Positions 8,611 through 55,682 of a stretch of DNA of 64,000 bases are shown one piece after another. The notes below the pieces were generated by a model. The model saw only the letters and a program-made list of their open reading frames with translations. It did no database searches and was not told the DNA's origin. Origin of the DNA: Pseudomonadota bacterium (lineage in GTDB: Bacteria > Pseudomonadota > Alphaproteobacteria > Micavibrionales > Micavibrionaceae); the NCBI GenBank assembly GCA_963204825.1, contig CAUJHN010000153.1:8163-72162 (forward strand). The letters run 5' to 3'. How positions within the stretch are numbered: the first letter of the stretch is position 1; each line of letters opens with the position of its first letter. The translations under genes and the position numbers were made by a program.

Positions 8611-8707
8611 AAAAATGGCCGGTATTCTGTTGCGAGGAACCGGCCGAACCCCACCTACAGTTGTCTAGACCGTAGGAATTGATTTGTAGCTACTGACTAA
8701 AGTGCGA

Positions 8708-9971: not shown

Positions 9972-10092
9972 GAGAGAACCTTAGCGCTTTTTACATTTAT
10001 GTCAATTTATTCCGCGTGGAAATTAACCCTCTAAGACTGGCAATTCCGTTCTCCCACGCCTAACTTTAAATAACAATTCCAAGGAGAGTCCC

Positions 10093-10887: not shown

Positions 10888-11090
10888 TTTTTAAGGGAAC
10901 TATGTTGCGCCGCACAAGTTAATCGTACAATGCCAAAGGAGGATTGCCATGCGTAACGATGCCCCCGAAGACATGTATTCTAAAACACCCACCATGCATT
11001 ATATCGATACTCTGTTAAATCGCGCCCGGACGATGTGGAGGCGTTGATCTTCCCCTTGTTATTATGGGCGCGATGCCCGATAACAGGATT

Positions 11091-31168: not shown

Positions 31169-32505
31169 GCATTCTATCCAGCATACTTGAACCGCACAGG
31201 CCGGATAAAGTCGCGCTGACTGAAGCGGGATATAAGCTTGATTATGGAGACCTGCCCAATCTCATAAAAAGCAGAGCCGAACGCCTTTCCCGTTACCACT
31301 GCGTTGCCCTGTCAATGAACAACGACATCGAATGGGTTTTATGGGATCTTGCAGGACTCGCTGCAAAAATTACGCTCGTACCCCTTCCCCCTTTCTTTAC
31401 CAAGGAACAGCGCGATCACGCGTTAAAGTCATCTGGCTGTGATGCGATCGTCACGCCTGACGGGCTTATCCCATTGCCGTATATGCCCATAACCTTAGCT
31501 GATGGCACGGCGAAAATAACATATACATCCGGCACTACAGGAACGCCCAAGGGCGTTTGCCTGTCAGAAGACGCGATGAGATTGGTTGCACAAAGCATTA
31601 TAGATGTTTTGGGACAGGATCTGGCTGACATACACGCGTGCGTTTTGCCACTTGGGGTTCTGTTAGAAAATGTAGCGGGTGTGTATGCAACGTTAATGGC
31701 GGGTGGAACAGTTCATCTGAATCGCCTTGAAAGTTTTGGTAAAAATTACGAACGCCTTCATGGCGCAATAAAAGAAAGTGGCGCAACGTCCATCATCCTC
31801 GTACCCGAGATGCTGCGGATATTGATGATGCAAGTGAGAGAGTCCGGCCCGCTTCCTTCCCTTAAATACGTCGCCGTGGGTGGATCAAAAGTTTCGCCTT
31901 CCCTGATATCGCAAGCGCGTGCGATGGGATTACCCGTGTATGAGGGCTACGGCCTGTCTGAATGCGCATCGGTCGTAGCCTTGAACACCCATAGCCAGAA
32001 TAAAGCTGGCACAGTCGGAAAGTTTCTGCCACATGTGCGCACCCGCATCGAAAACGGTGAAATCGTCCTGAAGAACACCGGGTTTTTAGGGTATGTGGGT
32101 GAAGCTCCCCCTTCCGTTATCCATACGGGTGATTTGGGCGAAATTGATGCGGAAGGTTTTGTTTCCATTACAGGACGGAAGAAGAACGTTCTTATCACGT
32201 CCTATGGCCGTAACGTCTCACCGGAATGGGTTGAATCCGAGCTGCTTTCCCAACCAGAAATCGCACAGGCAGTCGTTTACGGCGATGGGGAAAGCGCCCT
32301 CAGCGCTTACATAGCTCCTGCATTTCCCGCTGCGAATATTACAGAGGCCATTGCACAAGCAAACGCCCACCTCCCTGAATACGCCCACATTAAAAACTTT
32401 ACCCTTGTTCCTCCTTTTTCCCCTGAGGATGGAACACTTACCGGGACCGGCCGTCCCCGCCGGTCCCGGATCCTTCAACTTTACCAAAAGGAGAACATTC
32501 AATGA
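31165..32505 (+). CDS. AMP-dependent synthetase/ligase (adenylate-forming enzyme), short form
   Basis: Core motifs TYTSGTTGTPKGV, EGYGLSE, TGDLG and GRKKNVLITSYGRNVSP. ATGA overlap with the upstream gene. Confidence 0.88.
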   Translation: MSILSSILEPHRPDKVALTEAGYKLDYGDLPNLIKSRAERLSRYHCVALSMNNDIEWVLWDLAGLAAKITLVPLPPFFTKEQRDHALKSSGCDAIVTPDGLIPLPYMPITLADGTAKITYTSGTTGTPKGVCLSEDAMRLVAQSIIDVLGQDLADIHACVLPLGVLLENVAGVYATLMAGGTVHLNRLESFGKNYERLHGAIKESGATSIILVPEMLRILMMQVRESGPLPSLKYVAVGGSKVSPSLISQARAMGLPVYEGYGLSECASVVALNTHSQNKAGTVGKFLPHVRTRIENGEIVLKNTGFLGYVGEAPPSVIHTGDLGEIDAEGFVSITGRKKNVLITSYGRNVSPEWVESELLSQPEIAQAVVYGDGESALSAYIAPAFPAANITEAIAQANAHLPEYAHIKNFTLVPPFSPEDGTLTGTGRPRRSRILQLYQKENIQ

Positions 32506-33173
32506 CATTTTACGAACGCCTAAACAAAGAAACGGAAGTCATGCGCAAGGAATTATATTCCGTGCCGCAACTGATGGACGGCCTAAAAGGCAATATCAGC
32601 CGCGAAACATATATCGCCTATTTAACCCAGGCCTTCCATCACGTCCGTCATACCGTGCGGTTTTTGATGGCCATGGGCGTGCATCTGCCCGAAAGCAAAA
32701 AATGGCTACATGACGCCATTGCCGAATACATCGAAGAAGAAAAAGGCCACGAAGAGTGGATACTGAACGATATTTCAGCGGCGGGGGGCGATAAGGAAAG
32801 GGCACGTAATGCCACCCCAAACCTCGAAACTCAAGTCCTGGTCGCATATAACTACGATTACATCGCCCGGAAAAACCCAGTAGGTTTTCTCGGCATGGTT
32901 TTCATGCTGGAAAGCACATCCATACAGATAGCAAACAATGGAGCCGACGCTTTAAAAGCAAAACTCAACCTGCCTCAGACAGCCTTTACTTACCTCTATT
33001 CCCACGGCGCTCTGGATATTGAGCATATGAAATTCTTCGAGCAGCTTGTGAACAGAATCACAGATCCGGCCGACCAGGCAGCGATCATAGAAGTCGCACA
33101 AAATGCATTCCGCCTTTTCGCTAACGTTCTTCGCTCCATTCCTCACGTTCAGGAGATCAGACATGCGGCTTAG
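32502..33173 (+). CDS. Heme-oxygenase-like / TenA-like iron-containing redox enzyme family protein
   Basis: 223-aa protein that appears all-helical, with carboxylate/His pairs (EEEKGHEEW, ALDIEHMKFF) spaced as in heme-oxygenase-like diiron enzymes. ATGA overlap with the ligase gene. Confidence 0.6.
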   Translation: MTFYERLNKETEVMRKELYSVPQLMDGLKGNISRETYIAYLTQAFHHVRHTVRFLMAMGVHLPESKKWLHDAIAEYIEEEKGHEEWILNDISAAGGDKERARNATPNLETQVLVAYNYDYIARKNPVGFLGMVFMLESTSIQIANNGADALKAKLNLPQTAFTYLYSHGALDIEHMKFFEQLVNRITDPADQAAIIEVAQNAFRLFANVLRSIPHVQEIRHAA

Positions 33174-33939
33174 CGGAAAAAAAGTTTACATCACCGGCGG
33201 AACGGGCGGCATTGGGAAACCTCTTGTTTCTTTGCTTCGTCAGGCGGGCGCAGATGTAACAGTCTACGACATCGAAAAAGAGGGCGATCTCGTACAGAAC
33301 GTGGACAAGATCCGCGCATACCTGGAATCCAGCACTCCGGATATTTTGATCAATATGGCGGGATATAACGTGTTTGATTACTGCGAAAATCAGAATTTAC
33401 GGGCTATTATCGATCTCAATATGATGGTTCCCGTGCAGCTTTCGCAGGCCGTGCTGCGCGGCATGAAGCGTCGCGGTTCAGGCCATATCCTAAATATCGG
33501 TTCTATGACCGCTCTAATTCCATTGCCGCATTTAACAGGATACGTCACCGCCAAAGCTGGTTTGAAAGGTTTTTCTGACAGTCTGCGTAGAGAGCTTGGG
33601 GGTACGGACATTGCCGTAACATATATCGTGCCGCGTGCTGTAAAAACCGGCATGAATACGGGCGTACGCGCAGAAATCAATGAACGGACAAAAGTAACCT
33701 ATGATGACCCTATGAAGATTGCAGAGCGCATTTTTAGAGCCATCGCCAAACAGGAAAAAGAAGTGCGCATAGGATTCCCCGAACGTATCTTCGCCTTCAT
33801 CAATGCCATATGCCCCTCGGTTATCGACCAGGGGTTGCAGAAAAACCGCATAATCGGCGAACAACTTTTAGCTGAAACACAAAACTCCAAGGAGACCTAT
33901 AATGAAAAAACTGTATCTTCTCTCCGCGCTGCTCGTTAG
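33163..33939 (+). CDS. Short-chain dehydrogenase/reductase (SDR)
   Basis: TGGTGGIGK Rossmann motif, NMAG, and the S...YVTAK catalytic triad context. The start is at Met21 of the ORF (aggaga RBS) and overlaps the upstream gene by 11 nt. Confidence 0.88.
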   Translation: MRLSGKKVYITGGTGGIGKPLVSLLRQAGADVTVYDIEKEGDLVQNVDKIRAYLESSTPDILINMAGYNVFDYCENQNLRAIIDLNMMVPVQLSQAVLRGMKRRGSGHILNIGSMTALIPLPHLTGYVTAKAGLKGFSDSLRRELGGTDIAVTYIVPRAVKTGMNTGVRAEINERTKVTYDDPMKIAERIFRAIAKQEKEVRIGFPERIFAFINAICPSVIDQGLQKNRIIGEQLLAETQNSKETYNEKTVSSLRAAR

Positions 33940-34612
33940 TGCAGCTGCTCCTGCTTTTGCGCAACAAGCGCAGCCTGTAGCCATGCCGGCAGCGGGCGTC
34001 GCTGATCCCGTTTTGGAACAGATTGCACCCCTGCAAAGCGAATGGGCGCGGATCAAATATCAGGTAGCAGACAAAGAAGCAAAACTGACCGCTATTCACG
34101 CGCTCGAAGGGCAAGCGGCGCAAGTGACGGCTTCAAACCCCGCACGCGCCGAACCCAAAATATGGGAGGCTATTATCCTTTCGACGGACGCAGGTATTGT
34201 CAAAGGCATGTCCGCCTTGCCTAAAGTCAACAAAGCCAAAGAACTGCTGGAAACCGCAGAGAAGATAAATCCGAACGTTCTTGATGGCTCCGCTCATACA
34301 TCACTTGGATCTTTATACTATCAAGTGCCTGGCTGGCCTGTTGGCTTCGGCGACGATAAGAAGGCCGAAGAGCATCTGAAAATGGCCTTGCAGATTAATC
34401 CCGATGGTATTGATCCCAACTTTTTCTACGGCGATTTCCTTTTACAGGACGGACGGCTGGAAGAGGCAAAAACCTATCTGAGTCGTGCATTACAAGCAGC
34501 ACCCCGTCCTGGCCGTGAACTGGCGGATGCTGGTCGTAGGCAGGAAATCCAGGCTGCTCTTACTAAGATAGACCAGGAAGCAGCAAAAAAATCCAAAGGG
34601 CAGTTAAATTAG
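33902..34612 (+). CDS. Periplasmic TPR-like repeat protein
   Basis: Signal peptide MKKLYLLSALLVSAAAPAFA, followed by helical repeats (HLKMALQINPD.., YLSRALQAAPRPG). Confidence 0.6.
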   Translation: MKKLYLLSALLVSAAAPAFAQQAQPVAMPAAGVADPVLEQIAPLQSEWARIKYQVADKEAKLTAIHALEGQAAQVTASNPARAEPKIWEAIILSTDAGIVKGMSALPKVNKAKELLETAEKINPNVLDGSAHTSLGSLYYQVPGWPVGFGDDKKAEEHLKMALQINPDGIDPNFFYGDFLLQDGRLEEAKTYLSRALQAAPRPGRELADAGRRQEIQAALTKIDQEAAKKSKGQLN

Positions 34613-34620
34613 AAAAAACT

Positions 34621-35346
34621 ATGATTACAGTCGTCATCCCCGTTCATAACGAGCAAGAAAATGTCTCTGCCTTACTGGCGGAAATATACCAAGCGTCCCA
34701 GTCCGTGCCCATCAGCGAAGTTATCTATGTCGATGACGCCAGCACGGATGGGACGGCGGACATGCTTTCATCCTTAAGACAGACATATCCTTTTTTAAGG
34801 GTCATCCGGCATAGCATTAAATCCGGCCAATCGGCTGCATTCCTTACCGGGGTGAAAGCGGCCGGCAACAACATTATTGTGTTTATGGATGGGGACGGCC
34901 AAAACAACCCGGCAGACATCGAAAAACTCTATCAGTGCTATCAAGGCAAGAAAAGGCCGCAAATAAAAGTGATGGTCGCAGGCCAGAGAAAGATGCGGAA
35001 TGATAATCTTATACGGCGCCTATCATCCCGGATTGCCAACCGCATCCGTTCATTTATACTGAATGATAACATCCGCGACACCGGGTGTTCTCTAAAAATG
35101 ATTACGCGTGAAGACTATTTGACCTTGCCATTTTTTAATCATATGCACCGCTTCCTGCCGGCCCTTTTAAAACGGGATGGTGTGGAAATTCTAACTGTGG
35201 ATGTCTCACACAGATCACGCCTGCACGGCGTTTCAAAATACGGATTCTGGAACCGCCTGTGGGTAGGGATAGCGGACCTCGCAGGCGTTAGCTGGCTTCT
35301 TTCCAGAGCCAAACCAAAGAACCTCAGCATTCTGGAGATTTTATAA
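34621..35346 (+). CDS. GT2 polyprenyl-phosphate glycosyltransferase (ArnC/GtrB/DPM1-like)
   Basis: VVIPVHNEQENV, YVDDASTDGT and MDGDGQN (the DxD region), with C-terminal TM segments. Confidence 0.85.
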   Translation: MITVVIPVHNEQENVSALLAEIYQASQSVPISEVIYVDDASTDGTADMLSSLRQTYPFLRVIRHSIKSGQSAAFLTGVKAAGNNIIVFMDGDGQNNPADIEKLYQCYQGKKRPQIKVMVAGQRKMRNDNLIRRLSSRIANRIRSFILNDNIRDTGCSLKMITREDYLTLPFFNHMHRFLPALLKRDGVEILTVDVSHRSRLHGVSKYGFWNRLWVGIADLAGVSWLLSRAKPKNLSILEIL

Positions 35347-35630
35347 TGCCTTTAATTACCCACGAAACGCTTTGGCTTTCCATCGGCATGATTGGTCAGG
35401 CCATGTTTTCCATGCGCTTTGTCGTACAATGGATCGCTTCCGAAAAAGCAAAGAAGAGCATCATTCCAAATCTGTTTTGGTATTTCAGCATAGCGGGCGG
35501 CAGCCTGTTGCTCGCCTATTCTGTTTATCGCCAGGACCCCATTTTTATCTTGGGGCAGTCCATGGGGCTTTTCGTCTATTTGCGCAACTTATATCTCATA
35601 GTTTCGGATAAACATGCCGTATCTGCATAA
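35346..35630 (+). CDS. Lipid-A-biosynthesis N-terminal domain (LAB_N) small membrane protein
   Basis: WLSIGMIGQAMFSMRFVVQWIASEKAKKSIIPNLFWYFSIAGGSLLLAYSVYRQDPIFILGQ matches the LAB_N pattern. The start abuts the GT2 stop. Confidence 0.8.
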   Translation: MPLITHETLWLSIGMIGQAMFSMRFVVQWIASEKAKKSIIPNLFWYFSIAGGSLLLAYSVYRQDPIFILGQSMGLFVYLRNLYLIVSDKHAVSA

Positions 35631-36978
35631 GGGCCTTATTCCCTACAGCCTGCTTTTCCTCTTATTCATAGCCGCCGTTATTTTCCGTCCGCTCCTGCCG
35701 GTGGACGAAACACGCTATCTTACAGTTGCGTGGGAAATGTATCTGCAGAATAATTTTCTGAAACTCAGTCTGAATTTCGAACCATATCACCACAAGCCCC
35801 CCCTGCTCTTTTGGCTGATTAACATTTCATGGCATATTTTCGGTGTTTCAAGGGAAGCCGCCATGGTCCCTATATTTCTCGCAAGCGCTGCCACGCTGGC
35901 CTTAACCCGTTACCTTACAAAGATGACTTTTGGGGAAAAGGCCGCCGCGGTTTCTTCCTATATTCTTTTGGGCAGCATCCCTTTTATCGCCTATAGCACC
36001 ATGATCATGTTTGATATGACCGTGACGGCTTTTATCCTGTGCTATCACATTTGCTTGATTAAAAACGCCCAGAACCCAAAGCCGATGTTACCGGTCTTGT
36101 CCGGGCTTGCCCTGGGATTTGCAATCCTTGCAAAGGGGCCTGTTGCCTTTGTGTATATATTAGGACCGGTCATTTTCTATTCTTTCTGGCGAAAAGACAG
36201 CTATATCGTGCCTGCTGCGTTTTACCGGGCATTCGCGATATCCCTCGTCGTGGCCATTCTCCCCGTTCTGGCCTGGCTAGCCCCGCTCGCCGTTCAATCC
36301 GATCAGAAATTTCTATGGTGGCTCTTGTGGGAACAATCGGCAGGCCGCGTAACCGGAAACTTCAATGCGGCTCATGCACGCCCCTTTTATTTCTACTTTC
36401 TTTTAATCCCGCTGATCATCTTGCCCTGGGGCTTCTTTCCCAAAGTATGGCGCTCTTTTAAACTGGAAGAAAGAGAGACCAGATTTCTGATTGCTGCCAT
36501 CCTGCCCGCGTTTCTGGCGTTTTCATGCATCTCCGGAAAACAGCCTCATTATCTGGCCCCCCTTATTCCCTATGTCACCATGGCCTTTGCATCTGCCCTG
36601 CCGACATTTGAAAGATCTGTCCGTGCCACAGCGCTTGCAATGACAGGCCTCTTTCTTATCGGGCACGCCATAGGCTACGCATACCTTTTTCCAGAATATG
36701 ACCTTCGCCCTTACGCGGCGTATTACAGGCAACATGCGGACAAGGAGTGGGCCTTTGTACAAAACTACCAGGGCGAAATTGGCTTCCTGGCGAGAGTCGA
36801 AAAACCTATATCCAATATAGACAGAACGGATATGTCCAATTGGATGAAATCCCACCCGGACGGTTACGCACTCGTTAGGTATAAGGGACGTGAAGCTTAT
36901 TTAGATGGGCAGGAGCCGCTCTTTTCCTATCCGTACCGTGGAAAGAGACTGGGCGTTTTCCATTACAATAAAGAGTGA
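35614..36978 (+). CDS. ArnT/PMT_2-type GT-C glycosyltransferase (polyprenyl-phosphate-sugar dependent)
   Basis: The N-terminal loop LPVDETRYLTVAWEM..EPYHHKPPLLFWL is typical of the ArnT/PMT family. At least 10 TM segments. Confidence 0.85.
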   Translation: MPYLHKGLIPYSLLFLLFIAAVIFRPLLPVDETRYLTVAWEMYLQNNFLKLSLNFEPYHHKPPLLFWLINISWHIFGVSREAAMVPIFLASAATLALTRYLTKMTFGEKAAAVSSYILLGSIPFIAYSTMIMFDMTVTAFILCYHICLIKNAQNPKPMLPVLSGLALGFAILAKGPVAFVYILGPVIFYSFWRKDSYIVPAAFYRAFAISLVVAILPVLAWLAPLAVQSDQKFLWWLLWEQSAGRVTGNFNAAHARPFYFYFLLIPLIILPWGFFPKVWRSFKLEERETRFLIAAILPAFLAFSCISGKQPHYLAPLIPYVTMAFASALPTFERSVRATALAMTGLFLIGHAIGYAYLFPEYDLRPYAAYYRQHADKEWAFVQNYQGEIGFLARVEKPISNIDRTDMSNWMKSHPDGYALVRYKGREAYLDGQEPLFSYPYRGKRLGVFHYNKE

Positions 36979-36989
36979 TAGGGTAGACC

Positions 36990-37646
36990 ATGCGCCTGCT
37001 CCTGGTAGAAGATGACAAGAATTTAGGTAAAGCAACCGCAGAAGGACTGAAAGAATCCTTCGCCGTTGACTGGGTGCGAAGCGCCGAAGAAGCGGAAGAG
37101 GCCACCGCCATGGTAAAATACGACCTTATGGTACTAGATATCAATCTTCCGGAAAAATCGGGCCTGGATCTCCTTAAAGACTTGCGCAAGAAGGCAAACC
37201 CGATACCCGTTCTGCTCCTGACCGCCCGCGACGCCATTTATCACCGCGTGGAAGGCTTGAATGCCGGCGCAGACGATTACCTTGTAAAACCGTTCGATCT
37301 CGACGAACTTCTGGCCCGCTGCTCCGCGCTTGTGCGCCGCGCGCAAAGCCAGGGGCAGCCAGTGATTTCCATTCTCGATCTTTCCTATGAACCGGCCACA
37401 GGCAAATTGGAAAGAGATGGAAAGAGCATCCTTTTATCCGCCAAGGAGCGAGCCATATTTGATGTTCTGGCGCATAATATTGATCGCCCGGTCAGCAAGG
37501 CGTTGATTGAAGAGCGCATTTACGACTGGGGCTCCGAAGAAATTGAAAGCAACACGATTGAAGTCCATATAGCAGGGCTGCGCCGAAAAATTGGCAGGGA
37601 CTACATAAAAACCATTCGCGGCGTAGGATATATGATTTGCAAATGA
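36990..37646 (+). CDS. OmpR/PhoB-family response regulator (PmrA/QseB-like)
   Basis: MRLLLVEDD, LMVLDINLP, VLLLTAR and LVKPF, plus a winged-helix C-terminus (IRGVGYMI). Confidence 0.92.
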   Translation: MRLLLVEDDKNLGKATAEGLKESFAVDWVRSAEEAEEATAMVKYDLMVLDINLPEKSGLDLLKDLRKKANPIPVLLLTARDAIYHRVEGLNAGADDYLVKPFDLDELLARCSALVRRAQSQGQPVISILDLSYEPATGKLERDGKSILLSAKERAIFDVLAHNIDRPVSKALIEERIYDWGSEEIESNTIEVHIAGLRRKIGRDYIKTIRGVGYMICK

Positions 37647-38983
37647 GTTCAAAAAAATACTCCCTCAAGAAACGCATTCTTCTTTGGATCAGCATACCCG
37701 TGCTGATTTCTTCTATTTTGATTTTGCTTCTGGCTTTTCTTTTTTCCTGGCACGAAATTGAAGAAGTTTATGACGCGCAAATGGTACACACCGCAAAAAC
37801 GCTTTTGCAACTTACTGAGCACGAGATCGAGGAAAATGAAGAAGTGAATATTTCGTTGGGCGCAGAAAACCCCAACTTAAAACACCACTATGAAAACAAG
37901 ACGACGTTCAGGGTATGGAAAGGCGATCGTCTTGTCCTGCAGTCCCACCGCGCAAAGGATTTTGGCGATATCCAAGCCCCGCCCGGTTTTTCCAACCAGA
38001 CAGTCAAAGAAAAGCCCTGGCGCTTCTTTGTTTTCATCGATACCGAAAAAAATATTAAAATAGAGACGGCAGAACGTTACGCTATACGGTACGAATTGAT
38101 CGGCCAATTGATGCTGAGCCTGATTATTCCAATGGCAATTCTTATTCCACTCCTGCTCTTTATTGTCTGGCTAGGCATACGGCAGAGCATCGCGCCGCTT
38201 ACCACATTATCCGCGGCCGTTGATACCCGGGAAATCGACGACCTTGATCCGATACAAAGTTATAAAATACCTCTTGAAATCAGCCCTCTCGTTGAGGCCC
38301 TGAACAGGCTTTTCTTAAGAATTGGCGATAGCTTCAAGAGAGAGCGAGAATTCACCGACCATGCAGCGCATGAGCTGCGAACCCCTCTGGCGGCCATGAA
38401 GACCCAGACCCAGGTGTTGATCAAAAAGGCTTCTTCAATGCCCGACTGTCAGGAAGGCCTGGAAAACCTGAACGCCACGATAGACAGAAGTGCACACCTT
38501 ATAGAACAACTATTATCCCTCGCGCGGCTGCAAAATGAATCTCTGCAGATGGAACCCGTTGATTTGTCTGAATGCATACTGGACGCGCTTGGAGAAATCA
38601 CCCGGGCGGCTAACCTTAAAAATCAAACGCTGCATGTAGATATCAGTCGCAACGTTATTATTTCGGGGCAAAAAAATTCCCTGTTCATGATGATCCGTAA
38701 TCTTTTGGATAACGCCGTGAAATATACGCCCGAAAACGGAAAAATAGACATATCGCTCAATAAAGAAGGGCTGTTCACCATTGCAGACAACGGCCCCGGC
38801 ATCTCCGATAATGATAAAAAGCGTGTGTTCAACAGATTCGTGCGCAGCGATAAAACAGGACAAAATGGCAGCGGACTGGGCCTGTCCATAGTGCAGTGGG
38901 TTGCCGATACGCACAGAGCGAATATCACCTTATCCGATAACGCGCCTCAGGGATTAATAGTCACTGTGAGCTTCAGGCGATGA
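37637..38983 (+). CDS. Sensor histidine kinase (PmrB/QseC-like)
   Basis: Two TM segments flank a periplasmic loop. H-box FTDHAAHELRTPLAAM, N-box LLDNAVKYT, and G-boxes DNGPGI and GSGLGLSIV. The start may be the ATG at 43, which gives an ATGA overlap. Confidence 0.92.
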   Translation: MQMSSKKYSLKKRILLWISIPVLISSILILLLAFLFSWHEIEEVYDAQMVHTAKTLLQLTEHEIEENEEVNISLGAENPNLKHHYENKTTFRVWKGDRLVLQSHRAKDFGDIQAPPGFSNQTVKEKPWRFFVFIDTEKNIKIETAERYAIRYELIGQLMLSLIIPMAILIPLLLFIVWLGIRQSIAPLTTLSAAVDTREIDDLDPIQSYKIPLEISPLVEALNRLFLRIGDSFKREREFTDHAAHELRTPLAAMKTQTQVLIKKASSMPDCQEGLENLNATIDRSAHLIEQLLSLARLQNESLQMEPVDLSECILDALGEITRAANLKNQTLHVDISRNVIISGQKNSLFMMIRNLLDNAVKYTPENGKIDISLNKEGLFTIADNGPGISDNDKKRVFNRFVRSDKTGQNGSGLGLSIVQWVADTHRANITLSDNAPQGLIVTVSFRR

Positions 38984-39376: not shown

Positions 39377-39451
39377 TGGTGCCGGCAGAGAGGATTGAAC
39401 TCCCGACCTTCGGTTTACAAAACCGCTGCACTACCGCTGTGCTATGCCGGC
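39377..39451 (-). tRNA. tRNA-Thr (anticodon UGU)
   Basis: The reverse complement GCCGGCATAGCACAGCGGTAGTGCAGCGGTTTTGTAAACCGAAGGTCGGGAGTTCAATCCTCTCTGCCGGCACCA folds as a cloverleaf. It has a GCCGGCA/TGCCGGC acceptor stem, a GCAC/GTGC D stem, anticodon loop UUUGUAA, a short variable loop and an encoded CCA. Confidence 0.9.
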
Positions 39452-39690
39452 CCTAGAACATCTTTATTAACCATAATATTCATTGGTTAACAATAATGTC
39501 ATAAACCACGGCTTCATGGGGACATTCCCCGCCGTGTGAGGGATGTGTAACAAAAAAATGCCCTCCAACCTAGCTTTTTTTTAACCGGCGGCGCCTTACG
39601 TTATTTTTTGTAAAAATCGATGAATTTCTGTTAAATTAGAAGCGGATAACAAATCAAGCGCATTGCTTCTGAAAACAGCAATAGGAAATC

Positions 39691-40896
39691 ATGTCGGATA
39701 AGAAAGCACAAACAGCAGAACTTGCCGTGGGATGGGCCATTCTTGGCGTGGTTTTCGCGGCTCTGTTATGGCTGATCTGGTACTTTAACCGCAATGCAAT
39801 TTTAAATGGCATTCGCTGGCTGCGCCTTGGCGAAATGAAACTGGTATCGCCGCTTATACCGGCAGACTATGTCGTTCCGTGGAACGGCCAGGAAATACCG
39901 TTCCATGAAATGATGAAGATGGCGCAAAGCCTTCCGGCCGATCAGGTTTCGGGTGACTTTGTTGCGGCCTTGTCCACTGCGGCCATGCACCCCTATCTCT
40001 ACGTATTCGCCTTCATTACGGCGATCTTTGCCTTCTGGGCTCTGTTTCGCGGACCCGGCACTGAGCACAGAACGAAATACGACATCAACACGCTGATTAA
40101 AAAACAGGCGAATATCTTCCCCATCATTTCGCCCTTTATCGACTTTAACCCCTCTAACCAGCCGCCACGTGCGCCGGGCGCACCCGTTCCGGCCGAACTT
40201 CCGGACTTCGCCGAAGCGCTGAGCCCCGAAGAATGGATCGTTTACAACGAAATTCCCGTTGTTGATCAGAAAATCGATGAAGAGGCCGCCGCGAAAGCCT
40301 TTTCCAAGCAACTGGGCCCGCGCTGGAGAGGCGCGAAAAATCTGGCGCCTTATAAACAGGTTATGCTCGCCGCCTTTTGTTTGAAAGCTTCCCGCCGGCG
40401 TAACGATGCGGACGCGTTACTGGGTCGCCTTGCCCTTTGCTGGTCCCATAAAGGCGGCCTGAACTTCAATAAAGATAAAAAGCTTTTACGGGAAGCAAGA
40501 TCCATTCTTTCAACGGAGAAGCTGGCGGCCGCAACCTTAAAAAAATGTAACGAACATGCCTGGGAAACGACCGCCCTTATGCGCGCCCTCTCGTACGCAC
40601 GGGAAGAAGGCGGCGTGTTGGCGCCTGCGCAGTTCGTGTGGACACGGGCGTATGACCGCCTCCTGTGGTACCCGCTGAACAACCTGGGGCGTCAATCCCT
40701 GCATTTGGAAGCTATCGGCGCTATGGCCCACTACAAGGCCGAAAAGCTGGCACAGCGCCCTATCCCGCGTCCCAAGGTGCAGGATGCTGTAAAATCCTTG
40801 AATGAGTATATGGCGTCGACTAGCGCCCGCACATTGCCGCAGATAGACTACAGCGGCTCTAAAAAACGCGGCGTAAAGAAATTGAAAACGGCATAA
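39691..40896 (+). CDS. DotM/IcmP-like (TrbA-like) type IVB coupling-complex membrane subunit
   Basis: The N-terminus LAVGWAILGVVFAALLWLIWYFNRNAILNGIRWLRLGEMK plus a second TM segment, then a basic cytoplasmic domain. It sits directly upstream of a DotL-like gene, as icmP does for icmO. Family assignment is by recollection only. Confidence 0.55.
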   Translation: MSDKKAQTAELAVGWAILGVVFAALLWLIWYFNRNAILNGIRWLRLGEMKLVSPLIPADYVVPWNGQEIPFHEMMKMAQSLPADQVSGDFVAALSTAAMHPYLYVFAFITAIFAFWALFRGPGTEHRTKYDINTLIKKQANIFPIISPFIDFNPSNQPPRAPGAPVPAELPDFAEALSPEEWIVYNEIPVVDQKIDEEAAAKAFSKQLGPRWRGAKNLAPYKQVMLAAFCLKASRRRNDADALLGRLALCWSHKGGLNFNKDKKLLREARSILSTEKLAAATLKKCNEHAWETTALMRALSYAREEGGVLAPAQFVWTRAYDRLLWYPLNNLGRQSLHLEAIGAMAHYKAEKLAQRPIPRPKVQDAVKSLNEYMASTSARTLPQIDYSGSKKRGVKKLKTA

Positions 40897-40902
40897 GCAG
40901 GT

Positions 40903-41472
40903 ATGGCAAGCGCGATGAAACAACTCTGGAACAAAGATTCAAACGATTACCAGTCTTCGGCAAAAGTTGTAGATGGCAATCTCATCCTTTCCCTGCCCGA
41001 TGCAATCAATCCGGTTGTATGGCGCATGGAGCTTGGAAGCGTCAAGGCCTCCGCCCTGGAAGTACGGGGGGCCGAAGACGGCACCTTCTTACTGATTTTA
41101 AAAACGCCAAAAGGCGAAGTGCATGAAATCGCGCCTTTTGCGGCGCGTGATATGGCTGTGCATGCGCTCATGCGCGTTTCCACAGCGCTGCAAAACGCCG
41201 AAGGCAAAATCGCACCCGCAGGCACGCACAATGTTCAGCCTGCCTCAATACCGCAAGAAAAAAGCAGAACATCGCGCAAATGGCTGATTGCCCTCGGCTT
41301 CGTTCTTCTCATTATATTTTTAATGGCATGGGGCGGAAGCAAAGTCCATGTAACGGACCCGAATGGAAACCCTGAAGCCACGCTGCAAACAGAACCTTCC
41401 GACGGGGAGACAGGGGCAGAGGCGCCGAATGGCGTTCCAATGTCCGCCGACGAAATGTTGAAAGGGTTTTAA
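40903..41472 (+). CDS. Hypothetical single-pass membrane protein in the DotM/DotL-like operon
   Basis: 189 aa: a soluble N-domain, a TM segment WLIALGFVLLIIFLMAWGG, and an acidic tail. The gaps are 6 nt upstream and 5 nt downstream. Confidence 0.6.
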   Translation: MASAMKQLWNKDSNDYQSSAKVVDGNLILSLPDAINPVVWRMELGSVKASALEVRGAEDGTFLLILKTPKGEVHEIAPFAARDMAVHALMRVSTALQNAEGKIAPAGTHNVQPASIPQEKSRTSRKWLIALGFVLLIIFLMAWGGSKVHVTDPNGNPEATLQTEPSDGETGAEAPNGVPMSADEMLKGF

Positions 41473-41477
41473 GCGCT

Positions 41478-43799
41478 ATGGCAATTAATGAACGGAAGTA
41501 TGGCTATGATCATATATTCAGGGATTTGCGCCCTGCCTATGTGCGTCTGGGCGACTGGCTAAAAAATCCCAAACATTCTTTTGTCGTCTTTCTTGCGACA
41601 ATGATGCCATTTTACTTTATGCCAGATTCGCGGATGTACGCAGATCTTATCATGCTGTGCAATGTGCTGTTTTTCTGGTGGCTTGTAAAGCGGCCGCGCA
41701 AGCTTCCCTATAAATTGCCCATGGACTCCAAACTGAAAGATCCCAACAACGTGGGCGGAGGGCGCAATGGCAAACCCGAAGGCATCCTGTATCTTGGGAA
41801 TGCGCGCGGAAAAGAAAACAGCAATGAAGAAATCTGGTTTACGAACTCGGACGCCAGAACGCATATCTTATACCTCGGTACGACCGGGGCCGGAAAAACC
41901 GAAGGATTGAAATCCATTGTCACGAACGCCCTGACCTGGGGTTCCGGCTTCGTTTACATCGACGGTAAGGCCGATACGGATTTATGGTCTTCTCTTTCGT
42001 CACTCGTCCGTCGCTTCGGGCGCGATGATGATTTATTCGTCCTGAACTACATGACGGGGAACTCCGATGCGCGCGCGCCGTCGAACACGATGAACCCTTT
42101 CTCTTCCGGTTCGTCTTCGTATCTCACGCAAATGCTTGTCTCCCTGATGCCGAAATCCGAAGGCGACAACGCAATGTGGAAGGAGCGTGCCGTCTCGTTG
42201 GTCGGATCTCTGATGCCGGCTCTGACGTGGAAACGGGACAATCAGGATATGCCGTTATCCGTCGGCACGTTGCGAGATTCCCTAAACCTTGAAAACATCA
42301 TTCGCCTTGCGCGCGACGATGCGCTGCCATCGAAATTCCGTGACAGTATTATCGGCTATCTGAACACGCTTCCAGGCTACGTCGATGCCGCATTCGACGA
42401 CAACGGCAAAGAAAAGCCGATGGGGCCTGACCAGCCTATGATCGATACGACAACAGTGCGACAACAGCACGGTTATCTGACCATGCAGTTCACACGCTCC
42501 CTGCAATCTTTGGGCGATGATTACGGCTACATCTTCGATACGCAAGCCGCGGATATCGACATGGTCGATATTGTCTTGAACCGCCGCATCTTGATCGTTT
42601 TGATTCCGGCGCTTGAAAAATCAGGCGACGAAACGGCAAACCTCGGTAAAATTGTTGCGGCGACAATCAAGGGCATGATGGGTACGGCGCTGGGCGCAAC
42701 GGTGGAAGGCGAAAGCGCGACCGTCATCGAAAACAAGCCGGCCGTTTCCGCAACACCCTTCATGACCATCTTCGACGAGGTCGGATATTACGTTTCCGAA
42801 GGCATGGCGGTTATGGCAGCGCAGGCCAGATCGCTCGGCTTCTCTCTTGTCTTCTCGGCACAGGACTTGCCTGCCCTACAAAAACGCGTAAAAGAAGAAT
42901 CCAAATCGATCACGGGTAACTGTAACATCAAGATCTTCGGCAAATTGTCCGATCCGATGGATACGAAGGATTATTTCGAACGCCAGGTTGGAAAGGCGAC
43001 CGTTGCTCAAACGACGGGCTTCCAGCTGCACGGCAGCGGATCCTCGGGTTCTTTCTACGATAACCAGGGCGCCAACATTACTTTCGCGGAACGCGCAGAC
43101 TACGGCGATTTGAAAAAGCTCCGTGAAGGAGAAGCGATCATGATCTTCGAAGGCACGGTCCTCGACGTTCAGATATTCTACTGCAACCCGGGCCATGCAA
43201 AAGCAATGCGCGTGGGCCGCTTCCTGGCCCTTCCACCGGCAGACGAAAACATCGTCAAACACCGCGCGCAGGTAACCAGACTGCGCGATTTAATGGTCAG
43301 CAAAACATGGACGGCGGCAAAGGCGGATGTTGCCGCATCTTCTCCCCTTGCCATCGAAGCCATGCGCGATGGATTTTCCATCGGCACAAAACACCTCGAA
43401 ACGGCAACAGATCAAGGGATCGCCGCGATCGCCGAACTGCACGCGCGTCAATATCCGGAAGAGGCCGCAAAAGCACTAAGCGGAGAAGAGGCGCCTCCAC
43501 CCCCTGCCTTTACGAAAGCACCGGAACCCCCGACTGCGCCTACGGCACCATCGGCGCCAGCAACCCCAGCCACAGGCCCGCTCGGCTTCTTCAAAAAACC
43601 GGGCGACAATGTATCTTCTCCCGCAGTCACGGCCCCCGTGGTTCAACCTGCCGCCGCAGAACAACCGCAGCCGGTCAAACCTGTATCCTGGAACGAACTG
43701 GTTATAAAACCGGCGCTGGACAAGGACGTTGAAAAAATCCTGGAAGATGCAGGCGCAAGCGCCGCAGCAGCCCTTTTCAAAACGACAACCAAGGAATAA
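41478..43799 (+). CDS. DotL/IcmO-like (TrbC-like) type IV coupling protein ATPase
   Basis: N-terminal TM hairpin, then KLPYKLP...EEIWFTNSDARTHILYLGTTGAGKTEGLKS..NALTWGSGFVYIDGKADTDL..GRDDDLFVLNYMTG, collinear with Legionella DotL as I recall it. Walker B-like TIFDEVGYY. The Pro/Ala-rich C-terminal tail is about 110 aa. Confidence 0.75.
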   Translation: MAINERKYGYDHIFRDLRPAYVRLGDWLKNPKHSFVVFLATMMPFYFMPDSRMYADLIMLCNVLFFWWLVKRPRKLPYKLPMDSKLKDPNNVGGGRNGKPEGILYLGNARGKENSNEEIWFTNSDARTHILYLGTTGAGKTEGLKSIVTNALTWGSGFVYIDGKADTDLWSSLSSLVRRFGRDDDLFVLNYMTGNSDARAPSNTMNPFSSGSSSYLTQMLVSLMPKSEGDNAMWKERAVSLVGSLMPALTWKRDNQDMPLSVGTLRDSLNLENIIRLARDDALPSKFRDSIIGYLNTLPGYVDAAFDDNGKEKPMGPDQPMIDTTTVRQQHGYLTMQFTRSLQSLGDDYGYIFDTQAADIDMVDIVLNRRILIVLIPALEKSGDETANLGKIVAATIKGMMGTALGATVEGESATVIENKPAVSATPFMTIFDEVGYYVSEGMAVMAAQARSLGFSLVFSAQDLPALQKRVKEESKSITGNCNIKIFGKLSDPMDTKDYFERQVGKATVAQTTGFQLHGSGSSGSFYDNQGANITFAERADYGDLKKLREGEAIMIFEGTVLDVQIFYCNPGHAKAMRVGRFLALPPADENIVKHRAQVTRLRDLMVSKTWTAAKADVAASSPLAIEAMRDGFSIGTKHLETATDQGIAAIAELHARQYPEEAAKALSGEEAPPPPAFTKAPEPPTAPTAPSAPATPATGPLGFFKKPGDNVSSPAVTAPVVQPAAAEQPQPVKPVSWNELVIKPALDKDVEKILEDAGASAAAALFKTTTKE

Positions 43800-43803
43800 G
43801 CCC

Positions 43804-44490
43804 ATGCGCCCATCCAGCAGAAGCGGCAACGCGATCATTTTTGTGCTGGTCGGCGTCGCGCTGTTCGGCGCACTGGCTTATACCTTCATGCGCGGCGCAA
43901 AATCCGGATCAGGAAATCTGACAGCACAGCAAGCGAGAATGGCTGCCCAGGAATTGGCAGATTTTTTTTCCACCCTGGATCGCGCCATACAAAAACTACG
44001 GCTTAAAGGGTGTTCTGAAAACGACATCAGTTTTGCCAGCAGCAACGACACTGGCGCTTATGTGACAGATAACGACTCCACAACCGCCCCACCCGACAAA
44101 AGCTGTCATGTTTTTGATCCCAATGGCGGAGGCATGACCTTAGATCTGGATTTGGAAAAATATCAGGTTCCTGTAAACCAGATCAACGCCTCCTTCCAAT
44201 ACCAGTATGGACAGATTCTTTTTAGAAGGTTGTTGAGCTCAGTGGTGGGGATTGGGACATCAAGCAACGATTACATGGTGCATTTCAACTTCATTCAGCC
44301 TGAAATATGCAATGCTTATAACGCCCTTGTTGGCGTCACAGTCGATCTTACTGTCTCCGATACCGGAAACGTCAGCGGCGATACTGTCGCAGCACTGGCA
44401 GGAAAGGGATCCGTATGCTATCCCGCCGGCACCACCAATCAAAACGGCGGCCCCATCCTTAAAATTATATATGTCTGGGGCGCACATTAA
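43804..44490 (+). CDS. Hypothetical exported or membrane-anchored protein with pilin-like N-terminus
   Basis: MRPSSRSG-NAIIFVLVGVALFGALAYTF (short basic leader, Gly, 20-aa hydrophobic helix) and four Cys residues. The start is at Met26 of the ORF (aagga RBS), 4 nt after the DotL-like stop. There is no Glu at +5. Confidence 0.55.
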   Translation: MRPSSRSGNAIIFVLVGVALFGALAYTFMRGAKSGSGNLTAQQARMAAQELADFFSTLDRAIQKLRLKGCSENDISFASSNDTGAYVTDNDSTTAPPDKSCHVFDPNGGGMTLDLDLEKYQVPVNQINASFQYQYGQILFRRLLSSVVGIGTSSNDYMVHFNFIQPEICNAYNALVGVTVDLTVSDTGNVSGDTVAALAGKGSVCYPAGTTNQNGGPILKIIYVWGAH

Positions 44491-44580: not shown

Positions 44581-45273
44581 ATGGCCAGACAAGCACGAAT
44601 CGTTCTACGCGACACTCCCCATCACATAACCCAGCGCGGCAACCGCGGGGAAAATGTGTTCTTCGAAAAATCGGATTACGAAGCCTATATTCAGTTTTTA
44701 TCCGAAGAATGCGCGGATAAGGGCGTCTCCATCTGGGCCTACTGCCTGATGCCCAACCAAATTCAATTGATCGCAGTACCGCAAAAGGAAAACGCATTGG
44801 GCCGCGCGCTCGGCGAAGCGCACCGCCGCTACACACGCCGGATCAACGAACGCAATGCATGGCGCGGGCATCTGTTTCAGGACCGTTTCTTCTCCTATCC
44901 CATGGACGAAACGCATCTTTTGAACGCTGTGCGCTATATTGAAACGATACCTGTATTCTCAGGCATTGCGCCGACGCCCGAAAGCTATCTCTGGAGCAGC
45001 GCACGCGCCCACATGAAAGGCCGTGAAGACAAGCTGCTCTCGCCGGAAAAGCCCCTTCTCCATTTCGTGCCGGACTGGGCCGCGTTCTTGCAGGAATGGC
45101 CGGAAGATCAGGATCCAAAAGCCATCGAACGCCACCTGCAAACGGGCCGTCCGCGTGGGAATGATGTGTTTCTGGACAGCGTGGAAAGCATGGTCGGAAG
45201 AACCGTCCGCCCGCAAAAACCGGGGCGGCGTTCCATCACCTTCACAAAAAATCTATATAAATCTGCTGAATAA
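44581..45273 (+). CDS. IS200/IS605-type Y1 transposase family (COG1943/RAYT-like) protein with a degenerate HUH motif
   Basis: PHHITQRGN, AYCLMPNQIQLIAV (the family normally reads MPNHVHLL), GHLFQDRFFS, and RYIETIPV..YLWSS. No terminal hairpins or second IS gene were seen. Confidence 0.75.
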   Translation: MARQARIVLRDTPHHITQRGNRGENVFFEKSDYEAYIQFLSEECADKGVSIWAYCLMPNQIQLIAVPQKENALGRALGEAHRRYTRRINERNAWRGHLFQDRFFSYPMDETHLLNAVRYIETIPVFSGIAPTPESYLWSSARAHMKGREDKLLSPEKPLLHFVPDWAAFLQEWPEDQDPKAIERHLQTGRPRGNDVFLDSVESMVGRTVRPQKPGRRSITFTKNLYKSAE

Positions 45274-45275
45274 AT

Positions 45276-45941
45276 TTAGGCGGGTGCCGTGGCAGGCCCT
45301 GCGGGCCGTTGGTTGATACGACGCTCATCTTCAGGCACAAATCTTAAGGTATATATTTCCTTGGCCATTCCAACGAAAGCACCTTTTTGCGCCTTCGCTA
45401 GCTCACGAATACGGGCCGTAATGGCTGCAGCATTCACCACCAACCCTTTGGCATCGCATACAATACATTGATTGGTAATATCGCTGGGGTTAATTTTATG
45501 AAACCTGAAATGCACACGTAATATTTCCGCCGCCTGTTCCCTCGCTCGGACGAAATTATCACTCATAGAATCTTCCACGGTCACCGCATCGTTGCCTGAT
45601 GGCCCTACAAAACGATAATACGGTATTACTTTGCCATCGCGCCTAAACGCTGTCGCACGCAAAGTCCACTCGCCAAAATTTACATCGAGTAGATCTTTAT
45701 GCTCTGATTCCAAACCGCGCTTAGGCGCTTCGGCAAGCAGCGCTAAATCGTTCTCAATAGCAGATAGCTCACGATTGAGTTTTGCCTCCTGAATGCTTCT
45801 AATAGCTGTTCCTATTTCTGCAGAATCTACGCCCGTTCTTTGGGCAAGAGCGGCCAATAGCTGTTCATAGCTCAACTCAGAACCGGGAACAGCTTCCTGT
45901 TCACGCGGAAAATTTGCAGTGAGACTTTCGACGCTAGACAT
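45276..45941 (-). CDS. Hypothetical protein
   Basis: 221-aa ORF, convergent with the Y1-transposase-like gene (2-nt gap). Helical N-terminus. No family recognised. Confidence 0.5.
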   Translation of the reverse strand: MSSVESLTANFPREQEAVPGSELSYEQLLAALAQRTGVDSAEIGTAIRSIQEAKLNRELSAIENDLALLAEAPKRGLESEHKDLLDVNFGEWTLRATAFRRDGKVIPYYRFVGPSGNDAVTVEDSMSDNFVRAREQAAEILRVHFRFHKINPSDITNQCIVCDAKGLVVNAAAITARIRELAKAQKGAFVGMAKEIYTLRFVPEDERRINQRPAGPATAPA

Positions 45942-46088: not shown

Positions 46089-47843
46089 TTACATGCGCTC
46101 AGGCACCTGGATCCCCAGCAATCCCAACACGAGTTCCAGCTGTGCATTGGTCAAGGCGCAGAGCGCAAGGCGGCTGTTGCGCAGAACCACGTCGGTTTCG
46201 GAAAGTATATGGCAGTTGCCGTAGAAAGAACTGAAACCCTGCGCAAGACGGTAAGCGTACTCGCACAGATGATGCGGCGCGTAATTTTTAAGCGCGCTTT
46301 CGACGGCATCCGGCAATTCGGTTAGAAGAAGCGCCAGAGGGCGGTCAACGTCCTGCAATGAAAATGCGGGCGGCTTCCCGTCATATTCCGCCTTTTTTAA
46401 AAGGGATTTGATCCGCACGGCCTGATACAAAAGATACGGGCCTGTCTTGCCTTCGAAGCTCGTCAGGCGGTCGAGGTCGAACACATAATCCGCAACCCGC
46501 GCATTCTGAAGATCGGCGAATTTAATTGCCGCAATCGCAACCTTATGCGCGATATCCGCCTTTTCATCGGCAGACATGCCTTCACCGACATGCGCTTCGT
46601 CCATGCGCGCCCGCGCTCTTTCTTGGGCCATCGTGATAAGATCATCTAGCCGCATGACGCCGCCCGCACGCGTTTTAAAAGGCTTTCCATCAGGGCCGTT
46701 CATCGTGCCGAACCCTGCATGGGTCAATTCAACATCGTCGCGGACGATGCCGCCTTTGCGCACGGCGCGGAACACCTGTTCGAAATGCAGTGACTGGCGT
46801 TGATCGACGACATAAACCATCTTCGCGGGGTTATAGAGTTTGACGCGCTCTACAATCGTCGCCATGTCCGTCGTGCCATACATCACGGCGCCGTCGCGTT
46901 TATAAAGGATCAGCGGCGGCATTTCCTTTTTGTCGTCGTTTTGTGCGACTGGAACGATCCATGCGCCATCGCTTTCAACCGCGAAGTTCTTAGCGCGCAG
47001 GTCATCCACCATAGGCGCGATGTAATCATGCACGTCGGCCTCGCCCTTCCAAAGGTCGAAATGCACGCCGAGCGCAGTATAATTCTTTTCCATGCCCTTC
47101 ACGGACACTTTGCGGATTTTCTCCCAGAGCGAATAGTAAGGCTCTTCCTTGTTCTGCAGCTTGACCGTCGCGGCCTGTGCAAGTTCCATTAAATGTTTAT
47201 CTTCTTTTGCTGCAGCTGCTGAACGTGGGTAACGCTCCGCCATATCTTCCATCAAATCGTCAATAGATTTCTGGTCGCTTAAGTCCGTATTTTCAACCAC
47301 CGCAGTTTCATTTCTTGCAATGTAGTTATAAATAAGCATCCCCATATGCGTGCCCCAGTCACCCATATGCACATCGCCGAGCGTGTTATAGCCGGCGAAC
47401 TTCATGATTCGGCGTACGGCATCGCCGATGATCGCGGCGCGCAAATGCCCCACATGCATCGCCTTCGCGATATTCGGACCGCCGTAATCGAGCACAACGG
47501 TTTCATTGTGACCAAGGTCAGGTACGCCCGCGCGATCATCCGCGCCCGTTTCCTGTATATGTCCCGCCAGAAACGCATCCGTGACATTGAGATTGATAAA
47601 ACCCGGCCCGGCGATTTCGACCTTTGAAAAGACAGTGTTTTTTTGCAGGATTTCGACAATCCCGCCCGCAACCTCTCGCGGGTTCTTCTTTGCGGCCTTG
47701 GAGGCCGCCATAGCGCCGTTGCATTGAAACTGCGCCAGGTCCGCCCGGTCGGATACCGTCACGCGCCCAAACGCCCGGTCCAGCCCCTGCGCTTCGAACG
47801 CATCGCCCACAATCCCCGATAATTTCTGCGCCAGTGACGTCAT
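46089..47843 (-). CDS. argS: Arginine--tRNA ligase
   Basis: The class I HIGH motif appears as PNIAKAMHVGHLR. The anticodon-binding DALR domain ends in ..GIQVPERM. Length is 584 aa. Confidence 0.95.
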   Translation of the reverse strand: MTSLAQKLSGIVGDAFEAQGLDRAFGRVTVSDRADLAQFQCNGAMAASKAAKKNPREVAGGIVEILQKNTVFSKVEIAGPGFINLNVTDAFLAGHIQETGADDRAGVPDLGHNETVVLDYGGPNIAKAMHVGHLRAAIIGDAVRRIMKFAGYNTLGDVHMGDWGTHMGMLIYNYIARNETAVVENTDLSDQKSIDDLMEDMAERYPRSAAAAKEDKHLMELAQAATVKLQNKEEPYYSLWEKIRKVSVKGMEKNYTALGVHFDLWKGEADVHDYIAPMVDDLRAKNFAVESDGAWIVPVAQNDDKKEMPPLILYKRDGAVMYGTTDMATIVERVKLYNPAKMVYVVDQRQSLHFEQVFRAVRKGGIVRDDVELTHAGFGTMNGPDGKPFKTRAGGVMRLDDLITMAQERARARMDEAHVGEGMSADEKADIAHKVAIAAIKFADLQNARVADYVFDLDRLTSFEGKTGPYLLYQAVRIKSLLKKAEYDGKPPAFSLQDVDRPLALLLTELPDAVESALKNYAPHHLCEYAYRLAQGFSSFYGNCHILSETDVVLRNSRLALCALTNAQLELVLGLLGIQVPERM

Positions 47844-55676: not shown

Positions 55677-55682
55677 GTAAAC

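Follow-up and report, generated by a model that had tools for sequence, protein, structure and literature searches.

The 64-kb stretch of DNA analysed here (from contig CAUJHN010000153.1; hereafter the window) comes from a Micavibrio-like alphaproteobacterium and covers its oriC region (argS-gyrB-recF-dnaN-dnaA). It contains four tightly packed genes, which encode homologs of DotM and DotL, the core of the coupling complex in Dot/Icm type IVB secretion systems (T4BSS), and two small membrane proteins, which we call X and Y. The four genes probably constitute the coupling-complex operon of a chromosomal, relaxase-less Dot/Icm-type system (type IVB, mating-pair formation class I or MPF-I), vertically inherited throughout Micavibrio-like predatory alphaproteobacteria, with its genes dispersed in small units among housekeeping genes. 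The window holds the coupling operon, and the remaining machine genes would lie at other loci of the same genome, as several do in relatives.

A DotM-X-DotL-Y operon

Four intact open reading frames (ORFs) on the + strand follow one another in the order DotM, X, DotL, Y, with intergenic gaps of 6, 5 and 4 nt (Table 1). The ORF coordinates agree with an earlier interpretation made from the DNA letters (the sequence-only reading), which had proposed a four-gene, same-strand operon with these gaps. The first product carries the Pfam domain DotM_C (PF23127; 2.1e-49, 168.5 bits against a cut-off of 27) after its membrane segments, matches Legionella DotM among PDB sequences (6sz9_B, E-value 1.4e-23), and is encoded next to the X-dotL pair. 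The DotM/IcmP architecture that had been proposed for it is thus confirmed by both matches, and the icmP-then-icmO gene order also holds, since dotM precedes dotL as in Legionella, with X lying between them.

The alignment of DotL with its Legionella counterpart covers nearly the full length (6sz9_A; E-value 8.5e-142 by phmmer against PDB), with residues 13-690 of the query on residues 16-690 of the chain, so that a collinearity previously suggested for the N-terminus extends well beyond it. The N-terminal transmembrane (TM) hairpin, formed by two hydrophobic segments at residues ~34-72, is aligned to the Legionella DotL N-terminus. The Walker A motif lies exactly where the sequence-only reading had placed it, and the TIFDEV Walker B begins at residue 430. 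Searches with the Pfam and NCBIfam profiles suggested in that reading (DotM, DotL, TraD/VirD4 and TrwB) matched type IV coupling protein (T4CP) domain models as well as DotM_C, with DotL passing the Pfam cut-offs of TraG-D_C, T4SS-DNA_transf and TrwB_AAD_bind. Across 120 homologs, column conservation is 0.9-0.97 in the ATPase core of DotL and 0.34-0.55 in its tail. The tail measures ~110-170 residues, the alignment to Legionella DotL runs to residue 690, and the tail occupies a position equivalent to that of the adaptor-binding tail of Legionella DotL (PMC7280309, PMC7251119).

The nearest relatives of the window DotL (57-82% identity) belong to Micavibrio aeruginosavorus, Micavibrio sp. and unclassified alphaproteobacterial metagenome-assembled genomes, where the Joint Genome Institute name is IcmO. 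In a neighbour-joining tree, the window protein nests inside a Micavibrio clade whose genomes carry machine genes.

The operon is a core unit beside oriC

A scan of one genome per species recovered relatives in 197 genomes, and we examined the best 80, all of them Micavibrio- or Micavibrionaceae-type and including complete chromosomes. The order DotM-X-DotL is present in 79 of these 80 loci, the lone exception being truncated where its contig stops. A Y gene could be detected downstream of DotL in 63 of the 80, and argS adjoins the operon in 59. Nine contexts retrieved by exact protein look-up show the same arrangement of DotM, a protein of ~190 aa, DotL and a protein of ~230 aa, followed by (Y1_Tnp)-argS-gyrB-recF-dnaN-dnaA, and the block keeps its place next to argS-gyrB-recF-dnaN-dnaA in relatives whose DotL is 57-76% identical. 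The gene-neighbourhood comparison across alphaproteobacteria that had been recommended as a check therefore revealed a strongly conserved block. In M. aeruginosavorus ARL-13, the block corresponds to GMV_382-385, in which GMV_383 is annotated icmO and GMV_382, GMV_384 and GMV_385 as hypothetical, with GMV_378 (recF), GMV_380 (gyrB) and GMV_381 (argS) as neighbours; transcripts of the block are found in both attack and attachment phases. The operon is thus a vertically inherited core unit under purifying selection, and neither a mobile element nor a relic.

In one relative (locus L011, 175-7623), a phage-type integrase island lies directly 5' of dotM, at the flank that bears tRNA-Thr in the window. 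This flank may be a hotspot of integration.

Machine genes lie elsewhere in related genomes

The sequence-only reading had noted that no secretion machine, relaxase or integrase is in view, and this holds for the whole window. No further T4BSS domain, relaxase or integrase turned up when essentially every ORF of 150 aa or more was scanned with Pfam, and tblastn of the window with 21 reference T4BSS proteins matched DotL and DotM and nothing else. We extended the tblastn searches to 1.65 Mb of clade DNA, with reference queries that included proteins of an annotated Piscirickettsia T4BSS.

A DotB-type ATPase is encoded ~9 kb from DotL in three loci (L083, L067 and L086), the interval being filled by hemY, a mitofilin-like gene, hemD, hemC, tsaD, gpsA and a His_biosynth-family gene. 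Among NCBIfam models, dot_icm_DotB (TIGR02524; 8.9e-119, 397 bits) scores best for this protein, ahead of plasmid TraJ (233 bits) and PilT (215 bits). All nine metagenomic loci recovered with the clade DotB as query contain dotD-dotC-dotB. One of them (L095), from the same organism as L083, has the order lptB-rpoN-dotD-dotC-dotB with DotL on the same contig, and its DotD (PF16816, 1.4e-34) and DotC/T4SS_TraI (PF16932, 2.1e-79) domains are recognised by Pfam. Another locus (L099) encodes IcmT (by tblastn), DotI (2.2e-60), DotH (3.4e-74) and a TrbI-like DotG (1.2e-5, below the Pfam cut-off). None of the gene tables for the retrieved loci of relatives lists a relaxase. The DotA reference query had no match in the 1.65 Mb, and a search of the ARL-13 gene table for named Dot/Icm/Trb/VirB genes returned icmO alone.

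A lone gene of the DotI/IcmL family is also present in four Micavibrionales genomes (L003, L007, L008 and L009), flanked by housekeeping genes in the arrangement ABC1, then DotI-GapR-Wzy_C, and in one of the four it lies 4 kb from the DotM-DotL block. The encoded protein and the canonical DotI of L099 are only distant relatives, and the former has an apparent cleavable signal peptide instead of the canonical N-terminal TM anchor of DotI. Beside ABC1 and the lone DotI-like gene, two of these loci contain giant genes on the - strand (L007 1-7998 and L008 1-8038; >4000 aa, truncated where the locus stops) that encode a Peptidase_S74 domain; an association of giant genes with predatory bacteria has been described (bioRxiv 10.1101/2023.11.21.568195).

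The published record points in the same direction. In TXSScan Table S3, the complete genomes of M. aeruginosavorus ARL-13 and EPB each score 1 for pT4SSi and 0 for every conjugative class of type IV secretion system (T4SS), and Needham et al. (2022) reported pT4SSi in seven marine Micavibrionales (PMC9418006); both surveys are MacSyFinder-based. In the latter study, a pT4SSi call requires VirB4/IcmB, 6 or more accessory genes and the lack of a relaxase (PMC9418006). Because VirB4 is mandatory in such calls, the published tables imply that DotO/IcmB is present in the clade.

Partner X combines a putative PH/PTB-like domain with a conserved C-terminal motif

Neither X nor Y matched any Pfam, NCBIfam or PDB sequence, in keeping with the statement in the sequence-only reading that both belong to no recognised family. 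A library of 1.84 billion proteins contains 494 representative clusters of the X family, nearly all of them 170-205 aa long. Three parts are conserved: the N-terminal domain, the TM helix, which follows basic residues, and a C-terminal motif located past a variable acidic linker, with the invariant form G-x-P-x-S-A-D-(D/E)-x-L. From the positive-inside rule, and because X has no signal peptide, the N-terminus is expected in the cytoplasm and the acidic tail and C-terminus in the periplasm.

The AlphaFold2 model of X has a mean predicted local distance difference test score (pLDDT) of 80, rising to ~95 in the N-terminal domain, which consists of six strands and a capping helix at residues 82-99. 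Foldseek ranks PTB and PH domains first, bacterial PH domains among them, with weak matches (E-values 0.04-0.3, template modelling scores 0.26-0.4). We tentatively propose a PH/PTB-like fold on the basis of this model, and such a fold may point to a role in peptide binding. Genes occupying the equivalent position in the Xanthomonas plasmid pXCV183 and in the Piscirickettsia cluster show no detectable relationship to X or to Y (hhalign probability ~1% or less).

An X-type N-terminal domain also occurs in a second setting. A gene of one relative (L104 2848-3894, P0316; 348 aa) encodes such a domain (41% identity over 128 aa) followed by a TM helix and a periplasmic DsbA/thioredoxin domain that bears a CxxC motif. 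The gene's neighbours are three ankyrin-repeat genes and an S8-type protease gene, and it stands outside any DotM-DotL operon. The fusion recalls the Dsb-type genes that adjoin DotL in I-type plasmids.

Partner Y is a putative membrane-anchored periplasmic protein

Homologs of Y were collected with a concatenated X+Y query, which returned relatives of Y only. At the N-terminus, a short basic leader closes with an invariant G-N and gives way to a hydrophobic helix. The AlphaFold2 model (pLDDT 85, predicted template modelling score 0.76) has a long N-terminal helix and an alpha/beta domain, predicted to be periplasmic, which holds four conserved Cys residues at positions 70, 101, 169 and 205. 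The four Cys residues had been correctly counted in the sequence-only reading. The pilin-like N-terminus proposed there holds in outline only: the Glu at +5 is absent, the N_methyl and TIGR02532 profiles are unmatched, and Foldseek against PDB gave no fold match with an E-value below 3 (the pilin TcpA came at 4.7, with a template modelling score of 0.22). Since Y lacks both the Glu at +5 and a pilin profile match, we do not file it as a pilin. We propose from the model that Y is a membrane-anchored, disulfide-bonded periplasmic domain.

Features of the operon and its surroundings

Table 1. Coordinates of the operon, its motifs and neighbouring features (window numbering), and of lone DotI-like genes in related loci (locus numbering)
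Feature	Position	Strand	Description
Two-component system	36990-38983		after the 30470-36978 cluster
tRNA-Thr	39377-39451		upstream flank of dotM
Presumed promoter region	39452..39690	+	239-nt AT-rich gap from tRNA-Thr to dotM, proposed from reading the sequence
DotM/IcmP homolog, 401 aa	39691..40896	+	N-terminal membrane segments, then cytoplasmic DotM_C domain
Partner X, 189 aa	40903..41472	+	cytoplasmic domain aa ~18-100, TM helix 123-147, acidic tail (predicted)
DotL/IcmO-type type IV coupling protein, 773 aa	41478..43799	+	TM hairpin, ATPase core, variable tail
Walker A GTTGAGKTE of DotL	41877..41903	+	aa 134; located by script
Walker B-type TIFDEV of DotL	42765..42782	+	aa 430-435; aligned to Legionella CILDEY
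Pro/Ala-rich C-terminal tail of DotL	43455..43796	+	aa ~660-773; variable, with short conserved patches, e.g. VSWxxLV
Partner Y, 228 aa	43804-44490	+	ATG start inside a longer TTG ORF
Y1_Tnp gene	44581-45273	+	Pfam Y1_Tnp 3.4e-9; between Y and argS
argS	46089-47843		downstream flank
Lone DotI-like genes	L003 3276-3959; L007, L008 and L009 near 10001-10678		always adjoining gapR

The flanks of the operon are as previously read, with tRNA-Thr on one side and the Y1_Tnp gene and argS on the other. The gap between tRNA-Thr and dotM is the presumed promoter region because it is the sole sizeable non-coding gap 5' of the four tightly packed genes; a strong sigma-70 consensus is absent from its + strand, and we found no convincing sigma-70 promoter or terminator for the operon. 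The Y1_Tnp gene was considered as a mark of a mobile element and rejected, since a Y1_Tnp gene occupies the same Y/argS interval in the genomes of 25 of the 80 related species. The gene in the window has the appearance of a domesticated Y1 gene of the REP-associated type, not of a mobile insertion sequence.

Further genes of the window include thyA, ilvBHC, miaA, degP, hflKC, an envelope-modification cluster and a two-component system. At 30470-36978 (+) lie thermostable-hemolysin-like, AMP-dependent ligase, haem-oxygenase-like and SDR genes, and after them TPR, GT2 and ArnT/PMT_2-like genes. Two neighbouring genes in the dnaN-dnaA interval (54948-56504, +; 242 and 273 aa) each encode a BPL_N (biotin-protein ligase N-terminal) domain, and a single BPL_N gene is also found at the dnaN-dnaA site in relatives. 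A permuted (two-piece, alphaproteobacterial) transfer-messenger RNA at 8617-8991 (-) has an unusually long tag, ANDNFVVANDNNREVAFAKAA. Five ORFs of 155-228 aa have no Pfam match (45276-45941, 60109-60795, 25614-26096, 9012-9479 and 10980-11450, all on the - strand); the first of these, located between the Y1 gene and argS, went undetected by tblastn (E-value <= 1e-5) in all 80 related loci.

Comparison with known systems

The closest known system is the Dot/Icm coupling complex of Legionella pneumophila (DotL-DotM-DotN-IcmSW-LvgA-DotY-DotZ; PDB 6SZ9, 7OVB). The two share near full-length DotL homology with TM hairpin, Walker A and B motifs and a C-terminal extension, the membrane-plus-DotM_C architecture of DotM, and the dotM-then-dotL order. 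Both are spread over several chromosomal loci, with dotD-dotC-dotB as a separate operon (Legionella region I), and the Micavibrio system, like that of Legionella, appears to lack a relaxase. Unlike in Legionella, X lies between dotM and dotL and Y after dotL in Micavibrio, and neither has a Legionella counterpart; the four adaptors DotN, IcmS, IcmW and LvgA were not found in the examined Micavibrio loci, and the DotL tail is Pro/Ala-rich and poorly conserved. The Micavibrio genes are also far more dispersed, down to single genes amid housekeeping genes, and the host is an alphaproteobacterial predator of bacteria, whereas Legionella is a gammaproteobacterial parasite of eukaryotes.

I-type systems commonly have a small gene separating the homologs of DotM and DotL. 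It is found in the IncI/IncM MPF-I plasmids, as in trbA-trbB-trbC of R64 and in the series IcmP-like, hypothetical, IcmO-like and DsbG of Xanthomonas pXCV183. The principal tra genes are missing from the pXCV183 stretch that we retrieved, and its hypothetical genes yielded nothing informative with Pfam. Unlike these plasmid systems, whose DotL homologs are 37-42% identical to that of the window, the Micavibrio locus is relaxase-less, chromosomal and vertically inherited. In being carried vertically on the chromosomes of an alphaproteobacterial order, with genes in scattered islets, the Micavibrio system resembles the rvh T4SS of Rickettsiales (PMC2653234); rvh, however, is of type IVA (VirB/D4, MPF-T), whereas the Micavibrio system is of type IVB (Dot/Icm, MPF-I). 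The bacteria-killing Xanthomonadales X-T4SS (PMC6536674) is likewise a T4SS in a contact-dependent attacker of bacteria and might be a functional analogue, which we offer as a hypothesis only. It differs from the Micavibrio system in being type IVA, with a VirD4 that recognises XVIPCD toxins.

Weighing the explanations

Several results weigh against a dispersed Dot/Icm-type system. The window covers 64 kb of a source contig of ~79 kb and holds no further T4BSS gene. Among NCBIfam models, DotM scores below the equivalog cut-off of DotM_IcmP_IVB (1.5e-51, 175.6 bits against 230), and the best model for DotL is TrbC_conju, the IncI TrbC, again below cut-off (3.6e-116, 389 bits against 800). The VirB4-type ATPase DotO/IcmB was not found by tblastn in the 1.65 Mb of clade DNA, nor were homologs of DotN, IcmS, IcmW or LvgA in any examined locus. 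The locus that encodes IcmT, DotI, DotH and DotG is tied to the clade by 77% DotB identity alone. Finally, the 2011 Micavibrio genome paper saw no evidence for a T4SS. The last statement predates profile-based surveys and is superseded, and the same paper names icmO in its own gene table. As for the TrbC model, the DotL score falls below the NCBIfam cut-off while the Pfam domain models pass, so that DotL is a family member of a divergent lineage and not an equivalog of plasmid TrbC.

The sequence-only reading had favoured a stand-alone coupling complex. In such a case, the T4BSS channel would have been lost, and DotL and DotM, with X and Y, would act alone or feed a Tad, type I or type II-like secretion machine for some other export or DNA-handling role. 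The empty 64 kb around the operon, the retention of the operon even far from any machine gene, and the presence of two membrane proteins foreign to canonical T4BSS would all fit this idea. We nevertheless consider it unlikely. Relatives that carry the same operon encode dotDCB, IcmT, DotI, DotH and DotG elsewhere, both complete M. aeruginosavorus genomes score for a full pT4SSi, and a T4CP without a VirB4-type machine has no known precedent (established T4SS knowledge; PMC4027160). Because gene dispersal is the rule in this clade, absence from one window weighs little. The finding of these components at other loci is what the sequence-only reading had named as grounds for abandoning a stand-alone complex, and for the clade it is borne out; its alternative, that the operon is one half of a split T4BSS, is supported by the machine genes of relatives together with the TXSScan calls.

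An origin as the remnant of an integrated I-type conjugative element (an integrative and conjugative element or plasmid), with coupling proteins that once served DNA transfer, is less likely still. It would account for the best NCBIfam model of DotL being IncI TrbC, for a DotM, small gene, DotL order that resembles trbA-trbB-trbC and pXCV183, and for the tRNA gene upstream and the integrase island 5' of DotM in one relative. Yet the window has no relaxase, integrase or repeat boundary, the G+C content of the operon is close to that of its surroundings, and its oriC-side location is identical in dozens of species. The closest plasmid DotL, from a Bosea plasmid region whose sparse annotation made it unsuitable as a reference, is only ~41% identical, the TXSScan calls are 0 for the conjugative type-I class and 1 for pT4SSi, and clade DotB scores far higher with the Dot/Icm model (397 bits) than with plasmid TraJ (233 bits). 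That the genes are non-functional relics drifting to loss seems highly improbable: the sub-cut-off equivalog scores of DotL and DotM and the modest expression in ARL-13 could be taken in this sense, but all four ORFs and the Walker motifs are intact, the DotL core is conserved at 0.9-0.97 among the 120 homologs, and the operon persists in 79 of 80 species. The balance of evidence thus favours the coupling operon of a dispersed, vertically inherited Dot/Icm-type system.

A possible mechanism

By homology with the Legionella coupling complex (PMC7280309, PMC5802825), DotL and DotM would serve as substrate receptor and ATPase. DotL, as a membrane-anchored hexameric ATPase, would form with DotM an inner-membrane receptor that recruits cytoplasmic substrates, and this receptor would feed a channel of DotC/DotD/DotH/DotG, DotI, IcmT, DotB and DotO, encoded at other loci. 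X and Y may be lineage-specific subunits co-translated with DotM and DotL. X could present a peptide-binding-type PH/PTB-like domain to substrates or to the DotL tail while extending its conserved motif into the periplasm, and Y could provide a link to periplasmic channel parts.

Micavibrio is an obligate epibiotic predator, and for this reason the substrates may be effectors delivered into prey. We therefore raise the possibility, tentatively and with more doubt than confidence, that an ancient, vertically inherited Micavibrionales T4BSS injects effectors into bacterial prey, and that X and Y are lineage-specific coupling subunits which replace DotN/IcmSW/LvgA for substrate recognition and channel connection.

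Significance

Survey tables already list the system; the surveys that came after the 2011 genome paper give it no more than a table entry or a single sentence, and we found no component-level description of a Micavibrio T4BSS in the literature searched. What is new is the order-wide vertical inheritance of the operon and the extreme scattering of the genes among housekeeping genes, together with partner X, with its putative PH/PTB-like domain, TM helix and C-terminal motif, and partner Y, with its pilin-like anchor and its predicted 4-Cys periplasmic domain. X and Y are candidate coupling-complex subunits.

Work on Dot/Icm systems has dealt almost solely with their use by Legionellales to manipulate eukaryotic hosts, and a connection between the origin of these systems and eukaryogenesis has been drawn (PMC8896642). 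In the present case, an entire order of alphaproteobacteria that prey on bacteria appears to keep a relaxase-less Dot/Icm-type system as core genes, with its coupling operon beside oriC. The question of its substrates is directly testable, because M. aeruginosavorus can be cultured. If effectors are indeed delivered into prey, this would be a new mechanism of predation and the first type IVB system in predation of bacteria by bacteria, and it would provide a counter-example to the view that protein secretion by a T4BSS implies a eukaryotic host.

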